Assembly: GCA_027082955.1 (NCBI GenBank)
Contig: JALWTA010000010.1
Location: 9,712 to 73,711 of the forward strand
Direction of reading: 5' to 3'
DNA length: 64,000 nucleotides
Source of the DNA: Sulfurovum sp.
GTDB taxonomy: Bacteria > Campylobacterota > Campylobacteria > Campylobacterales > Sulfurovaceae
Of this stretch, positions 4,902-26,201 are shown one piece after another. The notes below the pieces were generated by a model. The model was given only the letters and a program-made list of their open reading frames with translations, was not told where the DNA came from and ran no database searches. Positions within the stretch are counted from its first letter, which is position 1; each line of letters starts with the position of its first letter. Both the position numbers and the translations under genes were made by a program.

Positions 4902-5183
4902 TTATTTTCGGATAATTTGCGCCTCGCCTGCAATAAGGGTAACAGTGGATTCGTTATGTCCGTCGGTATGGCTAATGGTGATCTCTGCATTGTCAGTAGT
5001 CTTCACAACTTTGTCACCCGGATAGACCGTATAGGATTGATTTGGCTGCATATCGATCTGCGATGGTCCCAAGGAGCCAAGGGAGGAAGAACCGCTTCCG
5101 TCTGCAGATGTTCCTCCACCGCCACCACCGCATCCCTGCAGAAGCAGCAGTGCTGTTGTTGTGATTACCAAATAACGTATCAT
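4902..5183 (-). CDS. Small Gly/Ser-rich lipoprotein, function unknown
   Basis: 93 aa. The signal peptide ends in the lipobox-like LLQGC, followed by GGGGGGTSADGSGSSS. It starts 13 nt after the upstream SGNH gene, so it is probably co-transcribed. Confidence 0.5.
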   Translation of the reverse strand: MIRYLVITTTALLLLQGCGGGGGGTSADGSGSSSLGSLGPSQIDMQPNQSYTVYPGDKVVKTTDNAEITISHTDGHNESTVTLIAGEAQIIRK

Positions 5184-5195
5184 GCTTGTTCCTTT

Positions 5196-6062
5196 CTAAA
5201 ACTGGATACCGGTATCGGGTATCTCTGTGGTAAACGTGACGCTGCCGGCTGTATCGTCATAGCTTACATCGATAATGTATTGCCGTGCAACTAGTGATGT
5301 CGGGAAGGCACGAAGATTATCGTTAAAGGTGCTGTTTTGCATAATGGCATTGAACCACACATTTGCTATTTTATAGTATCCGTTATCATTAGGATGTGTA
5401 TTGTCTGCGTAATCGGAGGAGGTGAGTCCTGCATCATTATACATATCGACAATCACAATGTCATCCCCCTGGGCAATACGCTGCTGAAGCATATCGTTGA
5501 GGCGTCGGTTAAAGATAGGAATCCTTCCGTCAGGTTCTTTTCTGTCAATGATGAGTGCGACAAATACTTTGACATGTTTTGAATAGGTGACCTCATACTG
5601 GTCAATAGCATTTAAAATATCGGCTACACCCTGCGGGTTAGTGGTTGTTCGGTCATTGGTCCCTATGTGGAGCAGAACCATATCGGGTTGGCTGTTGACC
5701 ATGTAGTCGTAGGCATGTTCTGCAATGTCATATGTAGTCCAGCCCGGATGTCCCTCATTTTCCGGATCGAATGGCGGTGTGATATCTTGACCTGCAATCT
5801 GTGAGCCGACGAAATCGGCTGCAAATCCGGCATCCTGCAGTTTATACCAGAGATAATTCCGGTATCCGCTTCGCTGCCCAGCAGGACGTGGATGGTCGGA
5901 GTCGGCATAGGTGTCATCATAGGTAATGGAATCACCAAGCGGCATAATACGTACAACAGCATGTGCCGCTGCGGAAAGAAAAGCTAAAATCAAAAATATT
6001 TTTAAATAACGGAGACCTGACATACTGAAAAGCAACCTTTTTAATTTTAAATATAAGTGCAT
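5196..6062 (-). CDS. Secreted SGNH/GDSL-family hydrolase (candidate O-acetyl esterase)
   Basis: 288 aa with a signal-peptide-like N-terminus. The true start may be the internal Met at about 6023. SGNH blocks are GDSIT (I), GTND (III) and DNTHPND (V, DxxH). Confidence 0.75.
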   Translation of the reverse strand: MHLYLKLKRLLFSMSGLRYLKIFLILAFLSAAAHAVVRIMPLGDSITYDDTYADSDHPRPAGQRSGYRNYLWYKLQDAGFAADFVGSQIAGQDITPPFDPENEGHPGWTTYDIAEHAYDYMVNSQPDMVLLHIGTNDRTTTNPQGVADILNAIDQYEVTYSKHVKVFVALIIDRKEPDGRIPIFNRRLNDMLQQRIAQGDDIVIVDMYNDAGLTSSDYADNTHPNDNGYYKIANVWFNAIMQNSTFNDNLRAFPTSLVARQYIIDVSYDDTAGSVTFTTEIPDTGIQF

Positions 6063-6125
6063 AGAATAATATAGAAACCTTACTAAATTCCCCCTTATCC
6101 TAACCCTGTATTAAAAAAAAATGAC

Positions 6126-6131
6126 TATAAT
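6126..6131 (+). promoter_or_regulatory. Candidate -10 box TATAAT for MBOAT copy 1, preceded by an A9 tract
   Basis: A consensus TATAAT lies 26 nt upstream of the TTG start at 6158. An A9 run (6113-6121) lies immediately upstream. This is the only intergenic gap feeding the plus-strand block from 6158 to 14189. Confidence 0.4.
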
Positions 6132-6152
6132 TGCCTAAAAATAAACGGGATA

Positions 6153-7342
6153 CGCCCTTGCTGTTCAACTCCTACGCATTCATTTTTTTCTTTCTGCCGG
6201 TAGTTTTTGCTGTTTATTTTTATCTTAACCAGAGACGGCTGACAGAGGCAGGCAAAGCCTTTTTGGTCGTAGCGTCTCTTTTTTTCTACGCCTGGTGGAA
6301 TGTAAGCTACCTGCCGCTGATACTGGTGTCGATGGTGGTCAACTATGCAATAGGAAGAGAACTGGCACGGCACCAAAAGAACAGAAGAAGCTACTCTCCC
6401 AAAAAACTGCTTGCCGCAGGTGTCGTGTTCAACCTTGGACTGCTGGGATACTACAAATATATGGATTTTTTCCTCGAGAACGTCAACCGCATATTCCATA
6501 GCCATATCCCTCTGCTGCACCTGGCACTGCCGCTTGCGATCAGCTTCTATACCTTCCAGCAGATCTCCTACCTCGTAGACAGTTACAGAGAAGAGACCAA
6601 AGAGTATGACTTTCTTAACTATGCACTCTTTGTGACCTTCTTCCCCCAACTGATCGCAGGGCCTATTGTTCACCATGCAGAGATGATGCCGCAGTTTGCC
6701 AAGACAAGGAACAAAGTAAAGCACTATTACAATATCGCTCTGGGGCTCTTTGTCTTTTCTATGGGGCTGTTCAAAAAAGTGATCATTGCAGATACATTTG
6801 CACAGTGGGCGACCCAGGGGTTCGATGTGTCAAAAGAGCTTAATATGCTCGAAGGATGGGTCACTTCACTCTCCTATACCTTCCAGCTCTACTTTGACTT
6901 CAGCGGCTATACCGATATGGCGATCGGTGCCGCACTGCTGTTCAATATCAAACTGCCGATCAACTTCTTCTCTCCCTACAAGGCAGTCAGTATTCAGGAT
7001 TTCTGGAGGAGATGGCATATTACCCTTTCACGCTTTTTGAAAGATTACCTCTATATTCCGCTTGGCGGGAACAGAAAAGGCAAAATGCGTACCTATATAA
7101 ACCTCTTTGTCACCTTTTTGCTCGGGGGTATCTGGCATGGGGCAGGATGGACTTTTGTCTTTTGGGGCACACTGCACGGCGCGGCACTGGTGATACACCG
7201 TTTCTGGCAGCAGATGGGTATGAAGATGCCTAAGATCCTTGGATGGTTCATTACTTTTAACTTTATCAATATCGCATGGGTCTTTTTCCGGGCAAACAGC
7301 TTTCATGATGCCTTGAAGGTCTTGAAGGGAATGTTCTTGGGT
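6153..7342 (+). repeat. Direct repeat copy 1 (1,190 bp), identical to 11191-12380
   Basis: I compared the two stretches base by base and found no mismatch. All sense and antisense ORFs inside the two copies are identical in the supplied track. Confidence 0.9.
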
Positions 7343-7612
7343 ACGTTTGTCTACCCGGCGGGACTGCCTTTTGCAGACATGGTCAAGCATTGGGGCGCTA
7401 TTGTAGGGAAGTGGAGCTATCCGTTCCTGAAAGAACCGATGATAGGTTATTGGCTTCTTGCCGGTCTGGTTGTCGTACTCTTTTTCCCCAACTCAATGCA
7501 ACTCAAAGAACGCTTCAAAACGAACAGCTGGTACCTGATGTTAACGGTACTCTTTTTCCTTTCGGTCTTTTTTCTGTACAGAAAGAGCGAATTTATCTAT
7601 TTTAACTTTTAA
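6158..7612 (+). CDS. MBOAT-family membrane O-acyltransferase (AlgI/DltB/PatA-like), copy 1
   Basis: I chose TTG 6158, which gives MLFNSYAFIFFFLP. That is the typical family start and equals the start of copy 2. The ORF track extends to TTG 6131. The protein is polytopic, with the MBOAT His in GGIWHGAGW and a C-terminal SEFIYFNF. Confidence 0.85.
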   Translation: MLFNSYAFIFFFLPVVFAVYFYLNQRRLTEAGKAFLVVASLFFYAWWNVSYLPLILVSMVVNYAIGRELARHQKNRRSYSPKKLLAAGVVFNLGLLGYYKYMDFFLENVNRIFHSHIPLLHLALPLAISFYTFQQISYLVDSYREETKEYDFLNYALFVTFFPQLIAGPIVHHAEMMPQFAKTRNKVKHYYNIALGLFVFSMGLFKKVIIADTFAQWATQGFDVSKELNMLEGWVTSLSYTFQLYFDFSGYTDMAIGAALLFNIKLPINFFSPYKAVSIQDFWRRWHITLSRFLKDYLYIPLGGNRKGKMRTYINLFVTFLLGGIWHGAGWTFVFWGTLHGAALVIHRFWQQMGMKMPKILGWFITFNFINIAWVFFRANSFHDALKVLKGMFLGTFVYPAGLPFADMVKHWGAIVGKWSYPFLKEPMIGYWLLAGLVVVLFFPNSMQLKERFKTNSWYLMLTVLFFLSVFFLYRKSEFIYFNF

Positions 7613-7623
7613 GGAGACGTAGC

Positions 7624-8589
7624 GTGACACCTAAAACATACCTCAAACGTCTCTTTGGCGCTTTGGCACTTATCTTCTTTGTTGCTGTTGGATATGTTGC
7701 CTATTTTAATACCTATTACCCTGTTCCGATCACAGATCATATCTCATTTGATGCTAAGCTGAAGTTCGCTAGAGAGAAGATAGACCCCGACGGAGTGGAT
7801 ACACTCATTATAGGTTCATCGATCGGTTTGAACGATCTGCTTGGCACCGAACTGGAAAGGCACTCAAAGCATATTCACAAAGCATTGAACTTTTCTGTTT
7901 ATGGTGCGACCACCCTTCAGGCGGAACAGATTATGGCGCTTATGGATGCCTTTCCTCATTTGAAACGGATCATCTACTCCGTACAGTACTCGGATATGCC
8001 GCACCTATGGAAGTTTAAAGACTATCATCCCAAAACATTGGTAAAATATATTCGTCATGAGCTGAATCCTTTTGCCTATTTGAAACTGCTCTTTGATGCC
8101 TGCAATAACCTGGAATTCTGTTATGAACGTCAGAAAAAGTGGGTTCCCGACCATATGCGGACCAATACGTTCGAGTCGCTGATCTTTGATCCAAGCGGCA
8201 GTGTACCGCTGCATATTTACGGCAAAGATATTATTTGGCACCGGTGGCATCTGCCTCATCCGGGTATCATGCACAGCGAATCGTTCCGGGCGGTTGGGCG
8301 AATGGCAAAAAAGGCACAAGCGCACGGCATCCGTTTTTATGTTGTACATCAGCCCTATCGGAAACCGCTGTATGACACACATAAATCGGTAAGAGATGCC
8401 ATGGCATATTTTGATGCCAAGGTAAAGGCGGCAATGCAGCCGTATAACGGAAAACTCATCCGCATTCAACCGCTTCATCTGGGCGATGCCTATTTTGCAG
8501 ACCGGACGCACCTCAATGACAAAGGCAGTCCGGTGGTTTCGGCCTATGTTGCTAAACAGATAGACAGACTTGAAGATCAAGACCATTAA
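7624..8589 (+). CDS. Membrane-anchored periplasmic SGNH/DltD/AlgJ-like protein, putative acyl-transfer partner of MBOAT copy 1
   Basis: 321 aa. GTG start 7 nt after AAGGAG. It has one N-terminal TM helix, a candidate nucleophile in LIIGSSIG and a DxxH block (ADRTHLNDKG) near the C-terminus. Its position directly downstream of an MBOAT gene matches the algI-algJ, dltB-dltD and patA-patB arrangement. Confidence 0.5.
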   Translation: MTPKTYLKRLFGALALIFFVAVGYVAYFNTYYPVPITDHISFDAKLKFAREKIDPDGVDTLIIGSSIGLNDLLGTELERHSKHIHKALNFSVYGATTLQAEQIMALMDAFPHLKRIIYSVQYSDMPHLWKFKDYHPKTLVKYIRHELNPFAYLKLLFDACNNLEFCYERQKKWVPDHMRTNTFESLIFDPSGSVPLHIYGKDIIWHRWHLPHPGIMHSESFRAVGRMAKKAQAHGIRFYVVHQPYRKPLYDTHKSVRDAMAYFDAKVKAAMQPYNGKLIRIQPLHLGDAYFADRTHLNDKGSPVVSAYVAKQIDRLEDQDH

Positions 8590-8599
8590 GGAGAGAACT

Positions 8600-9172
8600 A
8601 TGCAATTTACACGAACGAAGATCGAAGATGTGATCATCATTGATCCTGTAGTACATGGAGATGAGAGAGGCTATTTTGTGGAAACGTTCCGTCAGGACAA
8701 ACTGGAAGATTTTCTTGGTTTTAAAGTCAATTTTTGTCAGGACAATGAGTCTAAAAGCAGCAAAGGTGTGTTGAGAGGGCTGCACTATCAGCTGACACCG
8801 GCAGCACAGACGAAACTTGTGCGGGTGATCAAAGGACGCGTTTTGGATGTGGCAGTCGATATTCGAAAGGGCAGTCCGACATTTGGAGAGTATGTTGCAG
8901 TTGAACTCAACGAAGAGAACAAACGGCAGCTTTTTGTACCAAGAGGCTTTGCCCACGGGTTTGTTGTGCTTGAGGATGATACGGTCTTTGCCTATAAAGT
9001 AGATAATTACTATTCTCCGGAAAATGACAAGGGGATCGCTTTTGATGACCCTGCCATAGGCATAGATTGGCAGATAGACAAAGCATTGCTGAAACTTTCG
9101 GACAAAGATACAAAACAGCCGCTTCTAAAAGATGCTGACCTCTTTAGCTATGGAGAGAATCTTTATGCGTAA
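8600..9172 (+). CDS. rfbC: dTDP-4-dehydrorhamnose 3,5-epimerase
   Basis: The ATG at 8600 gives MQFTRTKIEDVIIIDPVVHGDERGYFVETF. Cupin motifs RGLHYQ, KLVRVxxGxVxDVAVDxR and VPxGFAHGF are present. The ORF-track start at 8570 is probably a spurious extension. Confidence 0.9.
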   Translation: MQFTRTKIEDVIIIDPVVHGDERGYFVETFRQDKLEDFLGFKVNFCQDNESKSSKGVLRGLHYQLTPAAQTKLVRVIKGRVLDVAVDIRKGSPTFGEYVAVELNEENKRQLFVPRGFAHGFVVLEDDTVFAYKVDNYYSPENDKGIAFDDPAIGIDWQIDKALLKLSDKDTKQPLLKDADLFSYGENLYA

Positions 9173-11189
9173 ACATATTCTTATTACCGGTGCGAACGGA
9201 CAGCTTGGAGGTGAATTCCGTTCTCTGGTGGACAACCGGGAACGTTTTGATACCTCCGATCACTATTTTTTCACCGATAGAGAAACACTGGATATTACCG
9301 ACAAAGAGGCTGTTGAAAACTATGTGATGCAGCACAATATTGATACGATCATCAACTGTGCTGCCTATACGGCGGTCGATAAAGCTGAGGAGGAGGAAGC
9401 ACTTGCCTATCTTATTAATCGTGATGCGGTCAGAAACCTGGCAGAAATTGCCAAAAAATATGATATACATCTGATCCATATCTCTACAGATTATGTGTTT
9501 GACGGTACAAGCCATACCCCTTTGTGTGAAACAGACAGTGTTAACCCCCAAGGTGTCTATGCCAAATCAAAATATGAAGGTGAAGCGGCTATCAGAGAAA
9601 TTGCACCTAAAGGTGCAATGATCATACGTACCTCATGGATCTACAGCAGCATGGGGCACAACTTTGTCAAAACAATGCTGCGCGTGGGCAGTGAACGGGA
9701 TGAAATACGTGTTGTGTGTGACCAGATAGGGACGCCAACCTATGCAAGAGATCTTGCGAGGGCAATTCTTACGATCATTGCATCAGAGAGCCAGAGCGAT
9801 GAAGTCAAAACGTATCACTACAGCAATGAAGGGAACTGCTCCTGGTACGATTTCGCACAGGCGATCTTTGAGATCGCACAGGTTGACTGCCGTGTTACTC
9901 CCATCAGTACCCATGAGTATCCGACACCGGCAAAACGTCCTTCTTACAGTGTTCTCAACAAAGATAAGATCAAATATGAGTATGGTCTTGACATCCCCTA
10001 CTGGAGAGATTCACTCAGGTCCTGTATCTCGCTGCTGGACTTCAAAGAGGTCAAGCGTTACAAGATCGGTATTATTGGTTCAGGTTTTATTGCCAACGGA
10101 TTGGCAAAACTGCTGCTGCAGCATCCTGACTATGAATTGAAAGCGGTATTGACCCGAAGTGATTTAAGCAAGCGCAGTGATTTTGTCAAACCTGAGGTAT
10201 TGACCAATGACCTTGAGGTATTGCTTGATACGTGTGATTTGATCGTAGAATGCAGCGGAGATGCCATCTATGCAACCGAGACGATCGACAGAATCATCAA
10301 AGAGGACATACCGGTTGTGACGATGAACTCAGAGTTTCATGTGACTACAGGTTCTTACTTTGTGGACAAAGGGTTGGTTACGGAAGCCGAGGGGGATCAG
10401 CCCGGTGTCGAGGCTATTTTGTATGAAGAGGCGCTGGCAATGGGCTTTAGACCATTGGCATTTGTCAATATCAAAGGTTTTCTGAATGAAAATCCGACAA
10501 GAGAAGAGATGGAGTACTGGGGTGGACGCTCAAATCTCTCCCTGGAAATGGTAACTTCGTTTACGGACGGAACAAAGGTACAGATAGAACAGGCACTTGT
10601 TGCCAATGGTCTTGGCGGATGTATTGCACAGGAGGGGCTGCTTAAGCTGAAAGATGACGACATGCTTCATGGCGGTACTATTTTGGCGGACAAGGCTAAG
10701 GAACTGGGCTGTCCGGTCAGTGACTATGTGCTCTCTCCAAAACTGCCTGCCGGTGTTTTTTTGGTGGTAGAACATGATGAAGAGCAGGCAGGATCACTGC
10801 GTTACTACAAACTTGGGGAAGGTCCCTACTATGTTTTGGAGCGTACTTATCATCTTTGCCATCTTGAGATCATTAAAACGATCAAACGGGTACTGGGCGG
10901 TGGTGGTGTCCTGCTAAATAACGGCAGTGATCCGAAATTGAGTGTCGCAGCCATTGCAAAACATGACATTATGCCCGGTGATACGCTGAAAAAGGGCATC
11001 GGCAGTTTCGATGTACGCGGCGAAGCGGTATATATTGAGAAGCATCCTGACCATGTGCCCATAGGACTGCTTGCTGATGCGACGTTTGTGCGTGAGGTTA
11101 AAGAAGGGCAGATCGTAACCTTTGCAGATGTGGAACTTCCGGAGAGTCTGGCGCTGGATATCTGGAAGCGTATGCACATCAAAGGCTGA
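9165..11189 (+). CDS. Fusion protein: dTDP-4-dehydrorhamnose reductase (RmlD) N-terminal domain plus a homoserine-dehydrogenase-like NAD-binding domain ending in a SAF domain (COG4091-like)
   Basis: ATG 9165 overlaps the rfbC stop (ATGCGTAA). Residues 1 to about 295 are RmlD-like: ILITGANGQLG, STDYVFDG, YAKSKYEGE, PTPAKRPSYSVL. A second Rossmann motif KIGIIGSGFIANG then follows, with EGDQPG and a C-terminal beta-clip-like SAF segment (IMPGDTL...VKEGQIVTFADVE). Confidence 0.7.
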   Translation: MRKHILITGANGQLGGEFRSLVDNRERFDTSDHYFFTDRETLDITDKEAVENYVMQHNIDTIINCAAYTAVDKAEEEEALAYLINRDAVRNLAEIAKKYDIHLIHISTDYVFDGTSHTPLCETDSVNPQGVYAKSKYEGEAAIREIAPKGAMIIRTSWIYSSMGHNFVKTMLRVGSERDEIRVVCDQIGTPTYARDLARAILTIIASESQSDEVKTYHYSNEGNCSWYDFAQAIFEIAQVDCRVTPISTHEYPTPAKRPSYSVLNKDKIKYEYGLDIPYWRDSLRSCISLLDFKEVKRYKIGIIGSGFIANGLAKLLLQHPDYELKAVLTRSDLSKRSDFVKPEVLTNDLEVLLDTCDLIVECSGDAIYATETIDRIIKEDIPVVTMNSEFHVTTGSYFVDKGLVTEAEGDQPGVEAILYEEALAMGFRPLAFVNIKGFLNENPTREEMEYWGGRSNLSLEMVTSFTDGTKVQIEQALVANGLGGCIAQEGLLKLKDDDMLHGGTILADKAKELGCPVSDYVLSPKLPAGVFLVVEHDEEQAGSLRYYKLGEGPYYVLERTYHLCHLEIIKTIKRVLGGGGVLLNNGSDPKLSVAAIAKHDIMPGDTLKKGIGSFDVRGEAVYIEKHPDHVPIGLLADATFVREVKEGQIVTFADVELPESLALDIWKRMHIKG

Positions 11190-11190
11190 T

Positions 11191-12380
11191 CGCCCTTGCT
11201 GTTCAACTCCTACGCATTCATTTTTTTCTTTCTGCCGGTAGTTTTTGCTGTTTATTTTTATCTTAACCAGAGACGGCTGACAGAGGCAGGCAAAGCCTTT
11301 TTGGTCGTAGCGTCTCTTTTTTTCTACGCCTGGTGGAATGTAAGCTACCTGCCGCTGATACTGGTGTCGATGGTGGTCAACTATGCAATAGGAAGAGAAC
11401 TGGCACGGCACCAAAAGAACAGAAGAAGCTACTCTCCCAAAAAACTGCTTGCCGCAGGTGTCGTGTTCAACCTTGGACTGCTGGGATACTACAAATATAT
11501 GGATTTTTTCCTCGAGAACGTCAACCGCATATTCCATAGCCATATCCCTCTGCTGCACCTGGCACTGCCGCTTGCGATCAGCTTCTATACCTTCCAGCAG
11601 ATCTCCTACCTCGTAGACAGTTACAGAGAAGAGACCAAAGAGTATGACTTTCTTAACTATGCACTCTTTGTGACCTTCTTCCCCCAACTGATCGCAGGGC
11701 CTATTGTTCACCATGCAGAGATGATGCCGCAGTTTGCCAAGACAAGGAACAAAGTAAAGCACTATTACAATATCGCTCTGGGGCTCTTTGTCTTTTCTAT
11801 GGGGCTGTTCAAAAAAGTGATCATTGCAGATACATTTGCACAGTGGGCGACCCAGGGGTTCGATGTGTCAAAAGAGCTTAATATGCTCGAAGGATGGGTC
11901 ACTTCACTCTCCTATACCTTCCAGCTCTACTTTGACTTCAGCGGCTATACCGATATGGCGATCGGTGCCGCACTGCTGTTCAATATCAAACTGCCGATCA
12001 ACTTCTTCTCTCCCTACAAGGCAGTCAGTATTCAGGATTTCTGGAGGAGATGGCATATTACCCTTTCACGCTTTTTGAAAGATTACCTCTATATTCCGCT
12101 TGGCGGGAACAGAAAAGGCAAAATGCGTACCTATATAAACCTCTTTGTCACCTTTTTGCTCGGGGGTATCTGGCATGGGGCAGGATGGACTTTTGTCTTT
12201 TGGGGCACACTGCACGGCGCGGCACTGGTGATACACCGTTTCTGGCAGCAGATGGGTATGAAGATGCCTAAGATCCTTGGATGGTTCATTACTTTTAACT
12301 TTATCAATATCGCATGGGTCTTTTTCCGGGCAAACAGCTTTCATGATGCCTTGAAGGTCTTGAAGGGAATGTTCTTGGGT
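11191..12380 (+). repeat. Direct repeat copy 2 (1,190 bp), identical to 6153-7342
   Basis: Same evidence as copy 1. The offset is exactly 5,038 bp. The repeat begins 1 nt after the TGA of the rfbD-fusion gene. Confidence 0.9.
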
Positions 12381-12680
12381 GATACAGATATGAAAACATA
12401 TCTTCAAGGACTCTATGACCAAGCAAATCCAATTGCACAATGGTTCAATCTTAATAGTGGTGCCTACCATGCACCGTTCAATCTGTTCGCTTTGGCAATG
12501 GTAATGGTGGGATTGTTGATTGTCCTGTTCTTCCCAAACTCCAATGAGCTTGCCGGTATTTTTCATGCGAAGAAGCGTGTTTCTTGGCGATATTATCTGT
12601 TATCGGTACTGCTGTTTGGTACCGCATTGGCAATGATGAGTGTTTCGCATGGATCTGAATTTCTCTATTTTAATTTTTAG
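11196..12680 (+). CDS. MBOAT-family membrane O-acyltransferase, copy 2 (identical to copy 1 for 395 codons, divergent last ~100 codons)
   Basis: 494 aa with a TTG start. It equals copy 1 through VLKGMFLG, then diverges and ends SEFLYFNF. Confidence 0.85.
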   Translation: MLFNSYAFIFFFLPVVFAVYFYLNQRRLTEAGKAFLVVASLFFYAWWNVSYLPLILVSMVVNYAIGRELARHQKNRRSYSPKKLLAAGVVFNLGLLGYYKYMDFFLENVNRIFHSHIPLLHLALPLAISFYTFQQISYLVDSYREETKEYDFLNYALFVTFFPQLIAGPIVHHAEMMPQFAKTRNKVKHYYNIALGLFVFSMGLFKKVIIADTFAQWATQGFDVSKELNMLEGWVTSLSYTFQLYFDFSGYTDMAIGAALLFNIKLPINFFSPYKAVSIQDFWRRWHITLSRFLKDYLYIPLGGNRKGKMRTYINLFVTFLLGGIWHGAGWTFVFWGTLHGAALVIHRFWQQMGMKMPKILGWFITFNFINIAWVFFRANSFHDALKVLKGMFLGDTDMKTYLQGLYDQANPIAQWFNLNSGAYHAPFNLFALAMVMVGLLIVLFFPNSNELAGIFHAKKRVSWRYYLLSVLLFGTALAMMSVSHGSEFLYFNF

Positions 12681-12689
12681 GAGCATGGC

Positions 12690-14189
12690 GTGAGCAAGAA
12701 ACGGTATATCTTTATGATGCTGGCAGGAAGTCTGCTCTTTTTGCTGGTGCTGCCTGTGTTCAATTATCTCCATGACCAGTGGCGCGTACTCCATCGGGAT
12801 TTTGCCTATGCCTATGATGATATTGCGATCAACAAATCCTACTTGAAAACAGTCTATCTTTTGGCACATCCAAACCGGTATGATACACTGTTGTTTGGTT
12901 CTTCCAGAAATGCAGCTTTTGTAGAGACCGATATTGCACCGCATGCCTACAATGCCTATGCTGATTTTGGTGTAATAGGACAACACCTGCATACGCTTGA
13001 GATTTTGCTGGGACACGGCTTGGCTTTGAAAGAAGTGTGGATAGGGATCAATGATTTTGATATATGGAAAGATCCTAAAGATTTTGAAAAGGACTATTCC
13101 AAGCGGGTGTATCATGAAGATATAGAGGGGATATTTGACTTTTACAGACTTTATCTGTTTAAGCCTGTTGACAACAATGACCTTGCCATTATGAAAGGCA
13201 AATTCAAATTGGCTCCAAGTAACCGAATTTACCGTAAAGCGCTTGACAAACACAGACAAACATTGATAGACAAAGAGAAAAGTTTGCAAGAAAAAGGTAT
13301 GCGCTGGCGTAAAAAACTTACTTCGACTGCCGCGACACTGCTTGGCTACAAGGATGATCCCAAACAGTACAGAATCTCAAAAAGTATCGATGAGATCAGA
13401 AGGATCAAGCGTCTTTGTCAAAAACATCATGTTAAAACGGTTTTTTTCTTCTACCCGGCATTCTACAAAACCTATATGATGTACAACCAGTCCAGAATAG
13501 AAACTTTCAAACGTAAACTGGCAGAGGTGACAGATTTCTACGATTTTTATCGTCTTGATGCGACTGCAATGGATGAAACAAAATGGACAGATACCAGCCA
13601 CTTTGTCTATAGCGTCGCCTTTCAAATGGTTCAGGATATTAAACATGGGAAGCATCTTGTAACACACAGTAACTGTGAAAGCGTATTGAGACAAGAGCGT
13701 CAAATGGCTACAGAACAGTTACTGCGTAAACAACTTCCAATACCGTATGTAATGCGTTTTAACGGTACGATCCTGCCAAGTGGAACCGATGTACTATTTG
13801 ATATGAAAAAGGGTAGTTATGTCCCAAATGTACAGACCAGAGTGCAGACTGACACTGAGGGCATCAAGGTGAAAAGTCTTGGTACTGATCCAAATTTGTT
13901 GTTTGGTCCGGTGCTTTCAAAAACGCAGAATGTGGTGTTACATTGTGAGATGACAAGTCAATACAAGACACTTTTTCAGCTTTTTTACAAGGTTGGCAAG
14001 GATGCCCGTTTCAATGAACATGATGCGGTTAAATTCGGGTTACACAAAGGGCTGAACCGTTTTAACCTGCTGATCCCTTCTGCTTGGCTAAGGTATGGTT
14101 TCCGCATGGATCCGGGGCAGAAACCCGGTGATTATTTGATCAAGAAAATGGAGATATTTGGAGAGAAAAAATGTGCTTCAGGAGAGTGA
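12690..14189 (+). CDS. Membrane-anchored periplasmic SGNH/DltD/AlgJ-like protein with an extra C-terminal beta-rich module, putative partner of MBOAT copy 2
   Basis: 499 aa. GTG start after AGGAG, with the same junction layout as partner 1. It has an N-terminal TM helix, LLFGSSRN and a TDTSHF (DxxH) block. Residues from about 385 to 492 form a module also seen in the 695-aa and 615-aa proteins. Confidence 0.5.
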   Translation: MSKKRYIFMMLAGSLLFLLVLPVFNYLHDQWRVLHRDFAYAYDDIAINKSYLKTVYLLAHPNRYDTLLFGSSRNAAFVETDIAPHAYNAYADFGVIGQHLHTLEILLGHGLALKEVWIGINDFDIWKDPKDFEKDYSKRVYHEDIEGIFDFYRLYLFKPVDNNDLAIMKGKFKLAPSNRIYRKALDKHRQTLIDKEKSLQEKGMRWRKKLTSTAATLLGYKDDPKQYRISKSIDEIRRIKRLCQKHHVKTVFFFYPAFYKTYMMYNQSRIETFKRKLAEVTDFYDFYRLDATAMDETKWTDTSHFVYSVAFQMVQDIKHGKHLVTHSNCESVLRQERQMATEQLLRKQLPIPYVMRFNGTILPSGTDVLFDMKKGSYVPNVQTRVQTDTEGIKVKSLGTDPNLLFGPVLSKTQNVVLHCEMTSQYKTLFQLFYKVGKDARFNEHDAVKFGLHKGLNRFNLLIPSAWLRYGFRMDPGQKPGDYLIKKMEIFGEKKCASGE

Positions 14190-14225
14190 AGCTGTTTTAG
14201 TCTTATTACCCTTCAGCTTTACTAT

Positions 14226-15410
14226 TCATATATGGAATGACGCGTTGTTTTTGGCTTTTCTGAACCTGCCGCGTTTCCCAAAAGTGATTCCCGGACGTTC
14301 GATGAAGAGATAGGTCAGGGAAGCAGTCAGCACCACGAGCACAACGATAATAGGCATCATATAGGTGTGCTGTGTAGCGCTGATGAGTTTCAGGTCAACT
14401 ACCTCAAATACTGTAAAGAGAATGTAGATGATTGCACCGTGCAGGAGGTAGATGCTGTAGCTTATCTCTCCAAGCAGCAAAGAAGCTTTTTTATGCATCA
14501 GTCCGAAGAGGGAATTGCCCCAGGCAATGGCGATAAAAAAGAGTGCTACCAGCGAAATGGGCAGGGGATCGTATATTTTTTTGTAAAATACCGCATATAG
14601 CAGGGCGATGGTGATTGCTGCGGAGACAAATGCATTGTCAATATAGCGAATGGGAATGCGCTGAATATGCCCGGAGAGCACTGCGGCAACCCCTCCGATG
14701 ACAAAAAAGACAAGATGGATCGTCTCAAATGCGTAAAAGGCATGATTTTCATAAAAATAAACGGCACCGCCAATTGCCAGCAGCAGAGCGATCCATCGGT
14801 TAAGGGTAATGACAAGTGCGATTAGCGGCAAGGAGAGGTAAAAAAGCCATTCATATTTGAGCGTCCAGTCCACTCCGGCAATGATCAGAGGAGTATGGTC
14901 GTGCGTATGAAGATTACCGCCATGAAAAAAAAGCCAATGGGTATATTGTTCCACCAGAGAAGAGATGTCGATACCGTGACGGTATTGCGGTTGCATGAAA
15001 ACCACGACACTGATGACAAAAATGGCAAACAGATAGAGTGGATAGATCCTGAAAATACGGGATTTGTAGAGTTTGATCCAGTCTGTTTTGTGTCTGTCTT
15101 TCATGATCTTGGCAGTAAAGAGATAGCCTGTGATCATAAAGAAGATCATCACACCTATCAGTCCAATATTCTGGAAATAGACCTCATGCGGGCGCCACCA
15201 GTGGGTCGTGTTCTTCCAGTACCATGTCAGCATGAAGTGGTGGGCGAAGACCGAGAGGGCAAGGTAGCCTCGCAGTCCGTCTATTGCACCGTAACGGCCA
15301 GTACGTTCATGCAGAAAAGCAAAACGCGAATGTCTGACAACAAGGCTGCCAAGCAGGTAGCTGACTACCAGCATCGTCATAAAAAATCCGATCTTTACAA
15401 TATCATCCAA
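14226..15410 (-). CDS. Acyltransferase family 3 (OafA/WecH-like) membrane O-acyltransferase
   Basis: 394 aa, about 10 TM helices. AT3 hallmark IDGLRGYLALSVFAHH near the N-terminus. Confidence 0.8.
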   Translation of the reverse strand: MDDIVKIGFFMTMLVVSYLLGSLVVRHSRFAFLHERTGRYGAIDGLRGYLALSVFAHHFMLTWYWKNTTHWWRPHEVYFQNIGLIGVMIFFMITGYLFTAKIMKDRHKTDWIKLYKSRIFRIYPLYLFAIFVISVVVFMQPQYRHGIDISSLVEQYTHWLFFHGGNLHTHDHTPLIIAGVDWTLKYEWLFYLSLPLIALVITLNRWIALLLAIGGAVYFYENHAFYAFETIHLVFFVIGGVAAVLSGHIQRIPIRYIDNAFVSAAITIALLYAVFYKKIYDPLPISLVALFFIAIAWGNSLFGLMHKKASLLLGEISYSIYLLHGAIIYILFTVFEVVDLKLISATQHTYMMPIIVVLVVLTASLTYLFIERPGITFGKRGRFRKAKNNASFHI

Positions 15411-15459
15411 AGGGGCTCTTTCAGGTTTTGGAGAAGTATAGCGAAATTTGTTGAGAAAA

Positions 15460-15468
15460 TGGTATAAT
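15460..15468 (+). promoter_or_regulatory. Extended -10 promoter element TGgTATAAT for the 695-aa membrane protein gene
   Basis: An exact TGnTATAAT lies 26 nt upstream of ATG 15495 (SD GGGGAG) in the divergent intergenic region. Confidence 0.45.
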
Positions 15469-15494
15469 GGCGAAGCTTTAAGGCGGGGAGAGAC

Positions 15495-17582
15495 ATGTTG
15501 CTACGGGAACTTTGGAAACGTAAAAAAGAATTTTTTATTGTATTTGGCTACTTTTTTTTGCTTGTCTCTGGCATGATCATGACACATCATACCTTTTTGG
15601 GTATTCAGGACGAGGCTCAGCTTCAGGCCACACTTAAAGCAGCAGATGTCTACAACTATATGACCAGCTATCCTCTCGCTCTGTTTGGCGGATGGCTTTA
15701 TACCCATTTCCCCCATGGACAGTGGTACAGTGTCATCATGACCTTCTATACGCTCTTTATGACACTGGTTATGAGTGGCTATATCATATTGCTTGATATC
15801 GAAAACAGATGGGGAAGATGGTTTATTAAAGGGCTTTTGCTTGCGCTTTTTACTCTTCTGACGGTCTATACACTGCTGGAGGTCGATGTGACCTCTCCGA
15901 CACTCTTGCTTATCGCTTTGGCAGTGCCGTTGGTCAAACGTCATCAGGTATGGTTTTGGTTTATTTTTTGGGTAGCGAGCTTTTTACGCGAACAGATCAT
16001 CTTTTCGGTCATACCGCTGGTTGCACTGGCATATGTTATCGGCTTTGACAGAACCTATTTTACGAACAAGCGCAAGATTGTACTTTCATTGCTGTTCGTT
16101 GCGGGAATTCTGTTCAACCATTTTTCCTATAAACTTGACAAAGGATACGCACAATGGATGGAGTTTACTGAAGCACGTGCGTTTTTTACCGATTTTAACG
16201 GCGGATACAGTCCTGTTTTGACACCCGATGAATATCATCTTGCCAAAACATGGTGGCTGCTTGATCGGGAACTCTACCCTGTAGCCAAGATCCCGAAAGC
16301 CGCGGGAAGCAAGGTCGATCTTGTCAAAGAGCGTTTTTTGCAAAATCATCCGAAATGGCAAGTCAGAGCAGTACTGATCAGACATCCTGAGATCAAAATA
16401 CTCTTTGCGCTCTCTTTGCTCATTGCGTTGCTCTACAGGAGCTGGTTGCGTTTTGGGGCATACGCACTGTTCGGTATTGGACTTATTGTGCTGTTGATTG
16501 TCAAAGATGTCGAACGGGTGACATTTCCGGTGCTTATTATGTGGTGGGTACTGTTGGCAACGGATCTGTGGCGCATCAGGGGCAATGTGTGGCTGCGGCG
16601 ATCTGCGGTGGGTGCAGTGGTGCTTATTGTGGCATGGTTGTGCTACTTTACCTACCGGACACTTCCCTTGGACAGGATCACCCATTTTGCCCAGAGAGAA
16701 GCGCTGCATAAAGAGTTTAAGGATATTATCGCTCGTAACCACATGCAACTGGAGATCACATCCGGATACCCGGCATCATGGGGCTTGCTGGTGGAAGCGT
16801 TGATGGAAAATCACCTGTTCGACGAAGCCAACTGGGCAGATTTCTACCATGATCTGCTGCTCTCAGGGTGGTTTACACAAAGCCCTATCTGCTACCGGCA
16901 GCATCAGATCAGTGCAGATGGGGTCAAACGGAAATATGCCACCTACTATGACTGGCTGATGGATCCAAATACCGGTATCATCGGTTCAAAAGGGGAACGC
17001 AGGCATGTTCATCCGTTTTTGGCAACGAAACTTATGGCACTCTATGATAAAAAACATCCAAAAAAAGGATTCCGTCATATTCCTGAGGTGGTCGATGAGA
17101 GTAAACATTTCATTATTCACCGTATCGTACAGACAGATGCCTTTATTACACGTGTTTCCCCTGTAAAAGATATAAAGCAGTATACGCCGTTGTGGCGTAT
17201 ATCCTCTGCATCTTCACTCAGACCCCATCACATGGCATGGAAAGAGGGAATACTGCATGCTACAGACAAAGATCCGTGGTTTTTCGTGACACTGCCGCAT
17301 AGCAAAAGCCGTTTTGTGCTGCTGGATGTTGACATAGAGATTCCAAGGGCGCATGACGAGATGCAACTCTTCTATAAAACATCGGACAAACGTCCCTACA
17401 ACGAGATCGATTCTGTAAAAATAAGACTGAAAAAGGGCTGGAACCATTTCCAACTGAAGATCCCAAGAGAATACCTTCAAAGAACAGTCAGAATAGATCC
17501 TTCCAATTATGCGGGGGAATACCGTGTGCGTTCTATAGCACTCTATCCGTATGCGGAAGAGAATGCTTCTATGCAAAAGTGA
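15495..17582 (+). CDS. Polytopic membrane protein with a large C-terminal extracytoplasmic domain, function unknown (candidate GtrC/GT-C-like transferase)
   Basis: 695 aa. About 10 TM helices span residues 1-390, followed by a soluble region ending in the shared beta-rich module (residues about 578-686). I recognised no family motif. The functional guess rests on context only. Confidence 0.3.
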   Translation: MLLRELWKRKKEFFIVFGYFFLLVSGMIMTHHTFLGIQDEAQLQATLKAADVYNYMTSYPLALFGGWLYTHFPHGQWYSVIMTFYTLFMTLVMSGYIILLDIENRWGRWFIKGLLLALFTLLTVYTLLEVDVTSPTLLLIALAVPLVKRHQVWFWFIFWVASFLREQIIFSVIPLVALAYVIGFDRTYFTNKRKIVLSLLFVAGILFNHFSYKLDKGYAQWMEFTEARAFFTDFNGGYSPVLTPDEYHLAKTWWLLDRELYPVAKIPKAAGSKVDLVKERFLQNHPKWQVRAVLIRHPEIKILFALSLLIALLYRSWLRFGAYALFGIGLIVLLIVKDVERVTFPVLIMWWVLLATDLWRIRGNVWLRRSAVGAVVLIVAWLCYFTYRTLPLDRITHFAQREALHKEFKDIIARNHMQLEITSGYPASWGLLVEALMENHLFDEANWADFYHDLLLSGWFTQSPICYRQHQISADGVKRKYATYYDWLMDPNTGIIGSKGERRHVHPFLATKLMALYDKKHPKKGFRHIPEVVDESKHFIIHRIVQTDAFITRVSPVKDIKQYTPLWRISSASSLRPHHMAWKEGILHATDKDPWFFVTLPHSKSRFVLLDVDIEIPRAHDEMQLFYKTSDKRPYNEIDSVKIRLKKGWNHFQLKIPREYLQRTVRIDPSNYAGEYRVRSIALYPYAEENASMQK

Positions 17583-21951: not shown

Positions 21952-23031
21952 TTATAGCGAATTTTCTACTTGTTTTCGCCATTTGAATCCACGTTCCTCT
22001 ATCTGATAGTAGCTTAGGGACGATATACCTAAAAGTGAAACAACGAAGATCGTGATGATCATAGGCATAGAAGGGTGGTGCGGAAGCAGATAGTGGTCGA
22101 TCAGAAAGAGAATGGGCATATGCCAAAGATAGACAGAGTAGGAGATTTTGCCTATCCATTCTATAAATCCTACACCTTTTGGATCACTGTTGAACAGAAG
22201 TATGAAAAGAGCACTGACGATCAGCAGCATAGCGATGTTTCTAAACAGAAAGCTCTCTTGCATGAAAGAGTATGTCGAAAGGTAGACAAAAAAAACACCC
22301 AGTGCTATAGCAAGTATGTATCGGATAGAAAAACCGATACGGGGTGTGTAGACGACATAGCGGTAGATCAGAATGCCACTGATGAAATAGATGATCTGAC
22401 CAGGAAGCTGAAATGAAAGATAGTATGCAATAAGCATATAGTTGCTTGCAGATCTGTCAAGGTGGAGAAGGGTATCATACCATCCCCGGTCGATACCGAA
22501 GAGATAGAGCATCCCTGCAAAAAAAAGTATCATAAGATAACGGCTTTTGTGTACATAAAGGAAAAGCAGCGGTGCAATGAAATACCAAAGCATTTCTACA
22601 TTGAGAGTCCAGTATGCACCATTGATACCATAACCGGCATCTTTGTAGATAAAGTACGAAGTAAATGTCAAGTGACTTAACAGTGATTTTAAAAATCCGA
22701 ATGAAATCGGATGTGAAATACCAAAGAAAGCACCGTAGAGCATAATGACAAAAAGAAGATTGGCATAGTAGGCAGGAAGGATCCGAAAGAGCCTGTGAAG
22801 CGCATAGCGAACAAGTCCGCGTTTAGGATTCTCCTGGGAGAGATAAAAACTGACAGAACGGTAGATGAGGTAGCCGCTGATGATAAAAAAGAGTGCCACT
22901 CCGAACTGACCGAAAAAGTGAATATAGCCAAATACCGGCTCTCCCATCAGGTGCAGTAGTACATAAAAATGATAGATAACAACACTGATGACTGCAATTC
23001 CCCGAAGAAGGTCTATTCCTTTCAATCTCAT
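21952..23031 (-). CDS. Acyltransferase family 3 membrane O-acyltransferase
   Basis: 359 aa. It has IDLLRGIAVISVVIYHF and about 10 TM helices. ATGA overlap with the upstream gene. Confidence 0.8.
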   Translation of the reverse strand: MRLKGIDLLRGIAVISVVIYHFYVLLHLMGEPVFGYIHFFGQFGVALFFIISGYLIYRSVSFYLSQENPKRGLVRYALHRLFRILPAYYANLLFVIMLYGAFFGISHPISFGFLKSLLSHLTFTSYFIYKDAGYGINGAYWTLNVEMLWYFIAPLLFLYVHKSRYLMILFFAGMLYLFGIDRGWYDTLLHLDRSASNYMLIAYYLSFQLPGQIIYFISGILIYRYVVYTPRIGFSIRYILAIALGVFFVYLSTYSFMQESFLFRNIAMLLIVSALFILLFNSDPKGVGFIEWIGKISYSVYLWHMPILFLIDHYLLPHHPSMPMIITIFVVSLLGISSLSYYQIEERGFKWRKQVENSL

Positions 23032-26000: not shown

Positions 26001-26201
26001 AATGTGCTTTGGTAGTGTAACATAGAGATCATACGGCATATCCAGAGCAGATAGGTAGCGGTATATCTCTTCCCATATGTCAGGATAGAAAAGGTGGATG
26101 ATAATAGCAGTTCTGGCATGTGTGCCACGGATAGGTTCCGGCTCTTTCCTGAAAATGCGGTCGGATGCAAAAACGATTTGTTCAAAAAGATAGGATTTCA
26201 T
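23028..26201 (-). CDS. Three-domain glycosyltransferase: RgpF-like (rhamnan synthesis F) N-domain, coiled-coil/Pro-Lys linker, GT2 domain, GT-B (GT4-like) C-domain
   Basis: 1,057 aa. Residues about 30-255 are RgpF-like (IIHLFYPDIW, VENRGRDVLPF, KLHTKK). Residues about 283-395 are heptad-rich and contain SMRLKNRLK. Residues about 422-650 form a GT2 domain (INIIIPVYNG, VVNDASPD, NTDTE). Residues about 695-1050 are GT-B-like. Confidence 0.7.
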   Translation of the reverse strand: MKSYLFEQIVFASDRIFRKEPEPIRGTHARTAIIIHLFYPDIWEEIYRYLSALDMPYDLYVTLPKHIDESDAMRILQACPQATLYTVENRGRDVLPFLLVMNHIGIDTYTYLCKLHTKKTGESPLGSVWRKMLYFDLIGSPETVTKTMNLFAEDPNIGQITGRHTILDSQRYAYGNNTKIKQLCEAANIPFSADYTFAGGTMFWTRSKLLAPLLTLFQNGELDFEEERGQKDHTVAHAIERFLGILVQQQGMYIAPSPADYAALPVSLTEETASLVLSQQYAGQDIFEKVNELIDEMQALKQYAKEMETLAESMRLKNRLKNLPSEVIKHVRTKLGKETPALPKPSAAEKFSTAASLFKANPAAARKLFYYLKRGEFRYMWEKLKEKMQTNLRQSGNALSIDPKRDFISFDPKQYALPEHTRINIIIPVYNGYDFLEILFNTLKENTSHPYRLIVVNDASPDERVLPYLQRRLSEFDHATLLDNEENLGFVRSVNRAVEKAEGHFVILNTDTELPPFWLERLMYPVFHMPKVASTTPFTNSGTIASFPKFLEDNPIFEALSVTQLDSMFQKINPIPYYAHLPTGVGFCMGVNYDVVQEIGFFDIETFGKGYGEENDWCQRAIEHGYTNILVPNLFVYHKHGGSFPSVLKQKLLEENYSKLLTRHPDYDKQVQRYIQQDPHHTLRKLLVLTASSLKKPMWIMFDHALGGGANHYADALVENKHAEGENTLMIRFDFYTNKFSIHHRYKSYESLFSIDTLNGVEILLEQLRVDTVFLNSLVSYTNSKEILEYLEHFINRRNIDLIIPLHDFYAVCPSYTLLNDTGTYCDIPDIQTCRDCMGRNRLEWKTYHPEPADIDTWRLLWDRLLHLSSSILCFSQSSKEILLKAYPGLESANIEVLPHKVTDMTPLSLPPKEKDAPFTVGVLGAINYAKGAAMVKDLVSRIDAEDLNINVVVIGEITEPIESPHYSLTGKYQRNILPEIIQHYHVDLFFIPSIWPETFSYTAEEIMQMELPLMVFDLGAPAERVKMYDKGYIIDEVSADAVLRTVTKAQQDNTVV

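Follow-up and report, generated by a model that had tools for sequence, protein, structure and literature searches.

Which features of an MBOAT enzyme decide the SGNH-type protein with which it is paired is a question that a surface-polysaccharide locus of Sulfurovum sp. (Campylobacterota; GenBank assembly GCA_027082955.1, contig JALWTA010000010.1, positions 9,712 to 73,711 of the forward strand) poses in the form of a natural domain swap. Within this 64-kb stretch, called the window here and used throughout for coordinates, two MBOAT genes on the + strand, MBOAT1 (6158–7612, 484 aa) and MBOAT2 (11196–12680, 494 aa), encode proteins that are identical through residue 395 and different afterwards, and each is followed by a gene for a membrane-anchored partner protein, partner 1 (7624–8589, + strand, 321 aa) and partner 2 (12690–14189, + strand, 499 aa). 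How did two enzymes come to share one core, and what joins each of them to its own partner? The answer that we consider quite probable, taken as a whole, is that the genes form two MBOAT–SGNH O-acyltransferase pairs of the PatA/PatB and AlgI/AlgJ kind, sharing an operon in a locus for a rhamnose-containing surface polysaccharide, in a Sulfurovum-like member of the Campylobacterota, and that the identical cores reflect recent, recurrent gene conversion (non-allelic homologous recombination) and are not a design feature. The kind of system is known; its interest is evolutionary and practical and lies in a recurrent conversion restricted to one module, yielding natural chimeras.

The Two MBOAT-Partner Pairs

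Both MBOAT proteins match Pfam PF03062 (E values of 1.5e-40 and 1.1e-40), and their best relatives of solved structure are DltB proteins (8jem and 6bug, ~1e-21). The invariant catalytic histidine of MBOAT enzymes, His327 of a WHG motif, lies in the identical core and is encoded at 7136–7138 in MBOAT1 and at 12174–12176 in MBOAT2. Beyond the core, MBOAT1 carries a tail of 89 residues (396–484; 7343–7609) and MBOAT2 one of 99 residues (396–494; 12381–12677), each with two transmembrane (TM) segments; an earlier note on this DNA had observed that the two proteins differ only in their last ~100 residues, as is indeed the case. The tails end in FIYFNF, with Tyr481 (7592–7609), and in FLYFNF, with Tyr491 (12660–12677), both of the form FxYxxF, and F[IL]YF[ND]F is terminal in all 45 of the related MBOATs.

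The same motif has a defined role in peptidoglycan-type systems of the PatA/PatB class, where PatA auto-acetylates the invariant tyrosine of a C-terminal FXYXXF from acetyl-CoA in a reaction that requires the MBOAT histidine, and PatB takes an acetyl-tyrosine peptide as donor, while DltB systems carry FXYXXF on a separate microprotein, DltX (Anderson, Schultz et al., J Biol Chem 2025, PMC12148441). In the AlphaFold-Multimer model of that study, helices 3–14 of PatA make up the conserved MBOAT core, α15–α17 are a C-terminal addition, and the TM helix of PatB touches α1 and α17 of PatA (PMC12148441). The DltB model TIGR04091 (380 positions) aligns to residues 8–377 of the window MBOATs, with a score of 152 that is far under its cutoff of 375, and because the alignment ends at residue 377 the variable tail lies outside the DltB-like core. 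By analogy, the tail is mainly a putative acyl-carrying arm, the equivalent of DltX, and not solely an adaptor.

Partner 1 is predicted by AlphaFold2 (AF2), run with a family alignment (pLDDT 94.9), to consist of an N-in TM anchor (residues ~3–31) and a periplasmic SGNH/DltD-like α/β domain, whose Foldseek matches at a probability of ~1.0 include SGNH esterases, DltD (6pfx, 3bma, 7dxm, and 6o93), and PatB of Campylobacter jejuni (8tlb). In 43 sequences of its family, G64-S65-S66, N89-x-S91, and D293-R294-T-H296 are invariant. The AF2 model of partner 2 (pLDDT 94.4) combines an N-in TM anchor (~3–27) with a DltD-like SGNH domain (~60–345), matched by DltD 6pfx and 3bma at a Foldseek probability of 1.0, and with a C-terminal β-sandwich (~350–495) that resembles carbohydrate-binding modules (CBMs) of families CBM4/6/16/29/35 at target-normalised TM-scores of 0.5–0.63. 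Partner 2 holds all four SGNH blocks (G70-S71-S72, N88, G119-x-N121-D122, and D301-x-x-H304); across its family of 35, S71/S72 and H304 are invariant, and position 301 is aspartate in 28, glutamate in five, and asparagine in two. Residue conservation thus supports a putative Ser/Asp/His catalytic set in both partners, and the basic residues ahead of each TM helix predict that the catalytic domains lie on the periplasmic side. The architecture that the earlier note had recognised, a two-component MBOAT and anchored SGNH/DltD-like protein with GSS and DxxH blocks, is borne out: the blocks are invariant or nearly so in the two families, Foldseek returns DltD for both partners together with PatB and SGNH esterases for partner 1, and both AF2 models (pLDDT 94–95) show the SGNH/DltD-like fold whose absence that note would have counted as refutation.

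Sequence searches, and the structural scores themselves, weigh against so specific an assignment. Among the window proteins, neither partner has a Pfam or NCBIfam match above threshold; the partner family profiles, searched against PDB sequences, return noise and no sequence match; and the Foldseek TM-scores are moderate (0.3–0.47 on the query). The family searches that the earlier note had proposed thus gave no DltD or AlgX match above threshold for either partner. DltD (PF04914) has no match among the window proteins and matches weakly in 10 of the 43 partner-1 relatives (best E 0.001), while ALGX (PF16822) stays below threshold both for partner 1 (E 0.16; 12 bits vs a cutoff of 26.5) and for the 11 of 43 relatives that match it weakly (best 0.017). 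DUF1574 (PF07611) has no match in the window proteins and some in relatives, two of 35 for partner 2 (best 7.7e-07) and six of 43 for partner 1 (best 1.8e-04); one partner-2 relative (P0152) has a precomputed PF07611 hit, and a distant relative (P0269) reaches 24.1 bits where the cutoff is 29.1. All of the sub-threshold Pfam matches among partner family members fall in the SGNH clan, including ALGX, DltD, DUF1574, GDSL_2, and DUF459. The modelled likeness to DltD is therefore one of fold only, and the partners are probably remote relatives inside the SGNH clan whose relation to DUF1574 is borderline.

The two partners are, as had been described, highly diverged from each other. BLASTP finds no similarity between them, and hhalign places their profiles colinearly, GSS on GSS and DRTH on DTSH, at a probability of 6.9%, which is not significant; homology of the two partners is not claimed on this basis. 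Their homologues, 253 for partner 1 and 38 for partner 2, occur in Campylobacterota/Sulfurovum-type genomes and metagenomes, and a profile search with partner 1 gathers 486 representative clusters at E <= 1e-3, of which the distant members likewise score below the Pfam thresholds. Two SGNH-like partner families of considerable size thus stand outside every Pfam/NCBIfam model. Each of the features by which a MBOAT–SGNH pair was judged is present: a MBOAT with its histidine, a terminal FxYxxF, an adjacent gene for an anchored protein of SGNH fold, and conserved catalytic residues.

Divergent to the MBOAT operon lies a further SGNH/GDSL gene (5196–6062, − strand), whose product has a signal-peptide-like N-terminus, the SGNH blocks GDS, GTND, and DNTH, and matches to Pfam Lipase_GDSL_2 (2.7e-12), PDB 2vpt (1.3e-20 over residues 35–238), and the acetyl esterase 5b5s/5b5l (4e-17). 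Its reading as a secreted SGNH protein in the earlier note is confirmed, and its similarity to solved CE3 esterases and its SGNH blocks I, III, and V mark it as a candidate CE3-like carbohydrate acetylesterase. Among the related loci, which were gathered through the partner proteins and bear L numbers here, a homologue adjoins MBOAT pairs in at least seven (L005, L006, L007, L009, L010, L024, and L038), and it is plausible by analogy that the protein is the matching de-O-acetylase, as Ape1 is. This tight synteny would also suit a different division of labour, in which the anchored partners are hydrolases (de-O-acylases or lipases) or AlgJ-like relays and the secreted protein is the terminal transferase, as AlgX is; the top Foldseek matches of partner 1 are esterases, and alginate acetylation employs two SGNH-like proteins. 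We regard this arrangement as improbable. Each partner is translationally coupled to a MBOAT with the shuttle motif, as shown for PatA/PatB, and partner 1 is without the conserved block II glycine (N89-x-S91, with E/G at 94), a trait tied to transferase preference (PMC12148441), whereas the secreted protein is nearest to CE3 esterases and has canonical GDS, G, GxND, and DxxH blocks.

The Direct Repeat

At the level of DNA the shared core is a 1,190-nt exact direct repeat on the + strand (copy 1, 6153–7342; copy 2, 11191–12380), each copy consisting of a 5-nt leader and MBOAT codons 1–395. Its edges are sharp, similarity falling to random on both sides, and no other repeat of at least 150 nt occurs in the 64-kb window.

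Perfect repeats in assembled data call for caution. The window derives from a metagenome-assembled contig; the same sequence in GCA_027024005.1 lies on a contig that ends inside repeat copy 1, contigs break at both repeats in GCA_054006095.1, and bubble-popping would yield perfect identity. Such signs would fit an assembly artefact in which the cores are truly diverged or single, a collapsed node having been threaded twice or two strains having been joined via the shared segment, an explanation to which we give very little credence. One Logan unitig assembled from the raw reads (SRR13622959_127725; L002) equals window positions 7313–11220, the unique segment between the copies flanked on either side by exactly 30 nt of repeat, and as a k=31 graph yields such 30-nt ends at branch points, both inner junctions, from repeat to tail 1 and from the rmlD fusion to the repeat, exist in the reads. 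The sole linear path through this graph runs from the upstream sequence through the repeat, the middle segment, and the repeat again to the downstream sequence, an A-R-B-R-C order that uses all edges. Moreover, cores of 75% identity would never merge, the copies are resolved in L007 (six mismatches; four by blastn alignment) and in L042 (one mismatch), and the same gene order is found in the independent relatives L005 and L007.

Probable Gene Conversion of the Catalytic Core

Many related genomes carry two MBOAT–partner pairs, and one carries three. The within-genome DNA identity of their paralogous cores is bimodal. The high group comprises the window (100%), MBOAT-b and MBOAT-c of L042, which are linked to partner 2 and to a third partner type (99.9% over 1,189 nt), L007 (99.7% over 1,189 nt, or 99.5% over the 1,185 coding nt), and L022 (98%, where the contig holds no more than the final 158 nt of one core). 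The low group comprises L030, on the same contig as L003 (76.8%), L038 (74.5%), L039 (73.7%), JALTYW010000163, which holds L006 and L011 (71.8%), and L005 (71.0%); MBOAT-a of L042 is likewise 71.6% identical to both MBOAT-b and MBOAT-c. The blocks of high identity extend from 2–5 nt before the start codon to nt ~1,185–1,189, and past nt 1,185 identity drops to 33–58% per 90-nt bin, equal to random. Detectable homology stops at the same codons in the unconverted pairs, and the converted tract is, on these comparisons, apparently bounded by the limits of homology itself, with one edge a few nucleotides upstream of the start codon and the other at codon 395.

The age of the identity is indicated by comparison between genomes. 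Window and L007 cores share 85% of DNA positions and 67% of third codon positions, whereas third-position identity between the paralogous cores is 100% in the window and 98.5% in L007. Since the two lineages are far more diverged from each other than are the paralogues within each, homogenisation took place after the lineages split, and in both. All of the mismatches between the L007 cores lie within the last 45 nt of the block, a clustering that looks as expected near the end of a conversion tract.

Phylogenies of the two segments disagree in the corresponding manner. A neighbour-joining (NJ) tree of the tails separates type-1 and type-2 clades by partner type with 100% bootstrap, and the tail of MBOAT2 groups with tail 2 of L007 (97%). 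The NJ tree of the cores has no split by type: the two window copies pair with each other (100%), as do the two L007 copies (100%), and both pairs join the type-1 cores of the unconverted L006 and L009 in a single clade (99%). The non-converted members of that clade are all type-1, and the type-2 core of L011, from the same genome as L006, lies outside it. From this we infer the direction of the conversion: the sequence of a type-1 core replaced that of the type-2 core, and the copies have stayed homogeneous since. Partner 2 and tail 2 are intact in both converted lineages (73% and 66% protein identity, with third positions near saturation), so that the chimeric MBOAT2 is presumably functional.

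The hallmarks of gene conversion are therefore all observed, namely paralogues far more alike than orthologues, synonymous sites included, a sharply delimited tract, and discordant trees, and a search of the literature found no report of gene conversion or of core/tail mosaicism in bacterial MBOAT genes. The earlier note had proposed that one core, as an acyl-donor channel, is reused for two acceptors. That proposal does not hold: the cores of related genomes are only 71–77% identical, the identity in the window is the product of conversion, and there are two genes and two proteins.

One property of the tract is unusual for classical conversion, which needs flanking homology: the block of identity reaches the very edges of homology. 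This would suit a course of events in which a segment with MBOAT1 was recently duplicated and the copy then acquired a new 3′ end and partner, with no diverged MBOAT2 having been present to be converted. Such a history seems very unlikely to us, given that syntenic relatives with diverged cores (L005; JALTYW010000163) possess orthologues of tail 2 and partner 2 and that the window and L007 share tail 2 and yet have each their own homogenised core. The coincidence of the tract limits with those of homology in unconverted paralogues, and the position of the L007 mismatches, also speak against duplication.

A further alternative concerns the purpose of the repeats and not their origin. The 3.85-kb segment that they delimit contains tail 1, partner 1, rmlC, and the rmlD fusion, and RecA-mediated pop-out or amplification of this segment might vary the surface glycan, with selection keeping the repeats identical. 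Perfect direct repeats do flank a functional cassette that includes rhamnose-pathway genes, high identity is seen again in several lineages, each time within the same limits, and the topology of the assembly graph would fit a deleted form plus a circle equally well. A recombination switch of this sort is nonetheless unlikely: deletion or amplification variants were not observed in the short reads, which are unable to reveal them, half of the two-pair genomes have diverged cores, and conversion, being self-reinforcing at high identity, is the simpler account.

Co-Inheritance of Tails and Partners

The tails behave quite differently from the cores. In 45 of 45 related MBOAT genes the type of tail predicts the type of partner: MBOATs linked to partner 1 end in ...LYRKSEFIYFNF, those linked to partner 2 in ...EFLYFNF, and the one linked to the third partner of L042 in ...SEFIYFNF, such that position 2 of the hexapeptide is isoleucine with partners 1 and 3 and leucine with partner 2. 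Tails and partners have also diverged to similar extents, with mean distances of 0.66 (tail), 0.62 (partner), and 0.32 (core) in type 2 and of 0.44, 0.42, and 0.18, respectively, in type 1. In the type-2 set, Mantel tests give a correlation of 0.75 for tail and partner distances vs 0.48 for core and partner. Tail and partner are, by these measures, apparently inherited together as a specificity cassette.

That the tail serves as an adaptor, as the earlier note had suggested, is consequently supported in part. The strict association with partner type, the complete separation of tails in the tree, and the modelled contact between the PatB TM helix and α17 favour a tail that would match each MBOAT to its partner; the FxYxxF motif had been missed, and with it the probable main role of the tail as acyl arm.

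Several points temper the conversion and tail arguments and weigh against them. In the small type-1 set the Mantel correlations are 0.79 for tail and partner vs 0.84 for core and partner; α1, which lies within the identical core, also touches the partner in the PatAB model and might by analogy contribute to pairing; the direction of conversion rests on a NJ tree of few taxa; and bubble-popping in the assembly could hide a few differences between the copies, so that their true identity may be slightly below 100%. A possible adaptation in α1 itself was considered and rejected: Glu7 of PatA contacts PatB, and a change of residue 7 to alanine in converted lineages was the candidate, but this position is E, A, I, V, T, Q, P, or L regardless of type or conversion state.

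The locus with three pairs, L042 (Ga0256824_10000054), deserves separate description. Its third MBOAT, in the region 13810–17174, has a core 99.9% identical to that of the second and is followed by a third type of partner of ~383 aa, with VILGTSM (ILGTSM) and a late DLKH and with no Pfam match, and then by a transposase-like HTH_Tnp_1 open reading frame (ORF). By hhalign the third partner matches both partner profiles weakly and at motif positions only. The neighbouring HTH_Tnp_1 ORF suggests that tail–partner cassettes can arrive via mobile DNA. One could extend this to a full cassette system, in which a partner-agnostic MBOAT core is copied and homogenised over two or three loci, tail and SGNH-partner cassettes of at least three types (those of partners 1 and 2 and the third of L042) give acceptor specificity, and the repeats delete or amplify cassettes (tail 1, partner 1, and rmlCD). 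We think this extension rather doubtful; if true, it would provide heritable variation, at the level of the population, in the acylation and rhamnosylation of the surface glycan.

The recurrent conversion of cores bears directly on the determinants of pairing. In at least three lineages a core of 395 residues that belongs to one type now stands in front of a tail of another type, with tail and partner genes intact and still co-evolving. This implies that the core (α1 to ~α14, with the donor site and the catalytic histidine) would be interchangeable and that partner specificity would reside in the last 90–100 residues, position 2 of the hexapeptide included, a hypothesis useful for the engineering of glycan acylation. 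The genes also show clearly how concerted evolution in a membrane enzyme can be confined to one module.

Proposed Mechanism and Likely Acceptor

By homology to PatA/PatB, the MBOAT core (residues 1–395, with His327) would take an acyl group from cytoplasmic acyl-CoA and place it on the FxYxxF tyrosine (Tyr481 or Tyr491) at the end of the two-helix tail, on the periplasmic face. With the help of its DxxH pair, the anchored SGNH partner would then accept the acyl group on the GSS serine that an alignment with the GDS block points to (S66 or S72) and deliver it to a glycan hydroxyl. The acyl group is probably acetyl. The CBM-like domain of partner 2 makes it probable that the two pairs differ in the site, or in the glycan, that they acylate, and the acceptor is probably the rhamnose-containing surface polysaccharide of the locus. 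As with the direction of conversion, we infer the chemistry, the donor, and the acceptor.

The genes around the operon are of a kind that fits a surface polysaccharide. They include those for a WbaP-like initiating transferase, an MsbA-like ABC transporter, RmlC and RmlD, several GT2/GT1 enzymes, UDP-glucose dehydrogenase, GtrA-like and YdjC-like proteins, and two AT3 acyltransferases. Between the repeat copies, rmlC (8600–9172, + strand, 190 aa; dTDP-4-dehydrorhamnose 3,5-epimerase) is identified by Pfam (2e-73) and TIGR01221 (2.2e-73), with the gene called as in L001, and is followed by a 685-aa protein (9132–11189, + strand) in which RmlD (dTDP-4-dehydrorhamnose reductase; RmlD_sub_bind 4e-102) is fused to a DRL/homoserine-dehydrogenase-like oxidoreductase (DRL_cat, PF21135, 2e-31; NAD_binding_3, 8e-11). 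The fusion is kept in L003, L005, L006, L007, L009, and L042, with a weak SAF match in relatives, and may make a modified 6-deoxyhexose instead of plain rhamnose. Farther downstream, a 1,057-aa glycosyltransferase (23028–26201, − strand) with an RgpF rhamnan-synthesis domain, GT2, and GT1 points to a rhamnan-like polymer as the possible product of the locus.

The AT3-family acyltransferases are both without a fused SGNH domain. One (14226–15410, − strand; Pfam Acyl_transf_3 7e-31) is convergent to the operon and the other lies at 21952–23031 (− strand); at the related positions in L003, AT3–SGNH fusions are found. Two MBOAT pairs and two AT3 genes thus amount to at least four separate O-acylation systems in the locus. 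A polytopic membrane protein of 695 aa (15495–17582, + strand) has no Pfam match and a weak NCBIfam match to "cell surface glycopolymer formation protein"; its C-terminal domain (17244–17546) is a homologue of the partner 2 β-sandwich (E 3e-09; 32% identity over 102 aa), and the same CBM-like domain is attached to a 767-aa sulfatase-family protein in L042 (13360–13761). Between the genes for the WbaP-like transferase and the secreted SGNH esterase lies that of a 93-aa putative lipoprotein (4902–5183, − strand) with the lipobox LLQGC followed by a Gly/Ser-rich linker, and a small ORF occupies the equivalent position in L005, L006, and L009.

Gene Anatomy and Expression Signals

The divergent intergenic region upstream of MBOAT1 (6063–6157, + strand) contains, on inspection of the sequence, a candidate −10 box, TATAAT (6126–6131), with a TG at 6122–6123; a consensus promoter scan did not report the box at 6126–6131 and found fewer promoter-like sites than in shuffled sequences. 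Both MBOAT genes start with TTG. That of MBOAT1 is most likely at 6158 (MLFNSY...), 7 nt downstream of a GGGA Shine–Dalgarno-like site, rather than at the upstream TTG at 6131, because ~35 related MBOAT genes use the same codon position (MLFNS...), whether as TTG, GTG, or ATG. The TTG of MBOAT2 lies 7 nt past the upstream stop codon, that of the rmlD fusion, which itself stands 1 nt before repeat copy 2. About two thirds of the ~35 start codons are TTG and the rest GTG or ATG, at a constant position, and both window partners start with GTG, which suggests a deliberately low or coupled initiation of translation over the operon.

The junctions between MBOAT and partner genes had been described in the earlier note as stop, AGGAG, 7–8 nt, and GTG. 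AGGAG and GTG are present in both, with the correction that AGGAG overlaps the MBOAT stop codon (TAAGGAG before partner 1 and TAGGAG before partner 2) and that the spacers from AGGAG to GTG are 8 and 6 nt, respectively, the GTG codons lying 11 and 9 nt after the MBOAT stops. At the other end of the operon, a terminator scan found a hairpin, GCTTCAGGAGAGTGAAGC, at 14175–14192, which overlaps the stop codon of partner 2 and has T-runs on both strands; situated between the convergent partner 2 and AT3 genes, it may be a bidirectional terminator.

Comparison with Known Systems

PatA/PatB of C. jejuni and Neisseria gonorrhoeae is close in organisation, consisting of a MBOAT with a FxYxxF acetyl-tyrosine shuttle on an extra C-terminal helical module (PMC12148441) and, encoded next to it, an SGNH transferase that is anchored by its N-terminus and has a Ser–His–Asp triad, with an SGNH esterase gene, that of Ape1, nearby; partner 1 also matches PatB 8tlb by fold. 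The window partners differ in having no sequence-level similarity to PatB, and their context is a rhamnose-containing polysaccharide locus with two pairs per operon and not a patA-patB-ape1 cluster. Partner 2 has a CBM-like domain where PatB has none, and the esterase is CE3-like, without the CBM35 architecture of Ape1.

The AlgI/AlgJ/AlgF/AlgX system of alginate and the WssH/WssI system of cellulose acetylation likewise combine a MBOAT with an anchored SGNH-like protein acting on an exported polysaccharide, and AlgX, like partner 2, joins an SGNH-like domain to a carbohydrate-binding module. Partner 2, unlike AlgX, unites these two domains with a membrane anchor in one protein. An AlgF-like gene was not identified at the window locus, where PF16822 matches are sub-threshold, and the window partners have the canonical SGNH block order, with GSS early and DxxH late, in which they also differ from the alginate system.

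Teichoic-acid D-alanylation by DltB/DltX/DltD supplies the best relatives of solved structure, the MBOAT core being matched by DltB and the two partners by DltD, and the GSS nucleophile block of the window proteins resembles that of DltD. The window has neither a DltA/DltC carrier system nor a separate DltX; its organism is Gram-negative, and the donor is presumably an acyl-CoA. Following the argument made for PatA (PMC12148441), the variable tail would do the work of DltX as a fused part of the MBOAT.

The presence of more than one MBOAT–SGNH pair per genome, each for a different acceptor site, has a parallel in the Bacillus cereus group, of which PatA2/B2 is a further paralogue pair. PatA1B1 of that group is cited for secondary cell wall polysaccharide (PMC12148441). 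Homogenised cores or core–tail mosaicism were not found reported for these pairs in the literature search.

Concerted evolution of bacterial paralogues by gene conversion is familiar from the tuf genes and the rRNA operons. The MBOAT genes share with them near-identical paralogues, diverged orthologues, sharp tract boundaries, and discordant phylogenies of segments; they differ in that homogenisation is confined to one of the two modules of a membrane enzyme, the catalytic one, while the specificity module and the partner escape, and the result is a natural chimera.

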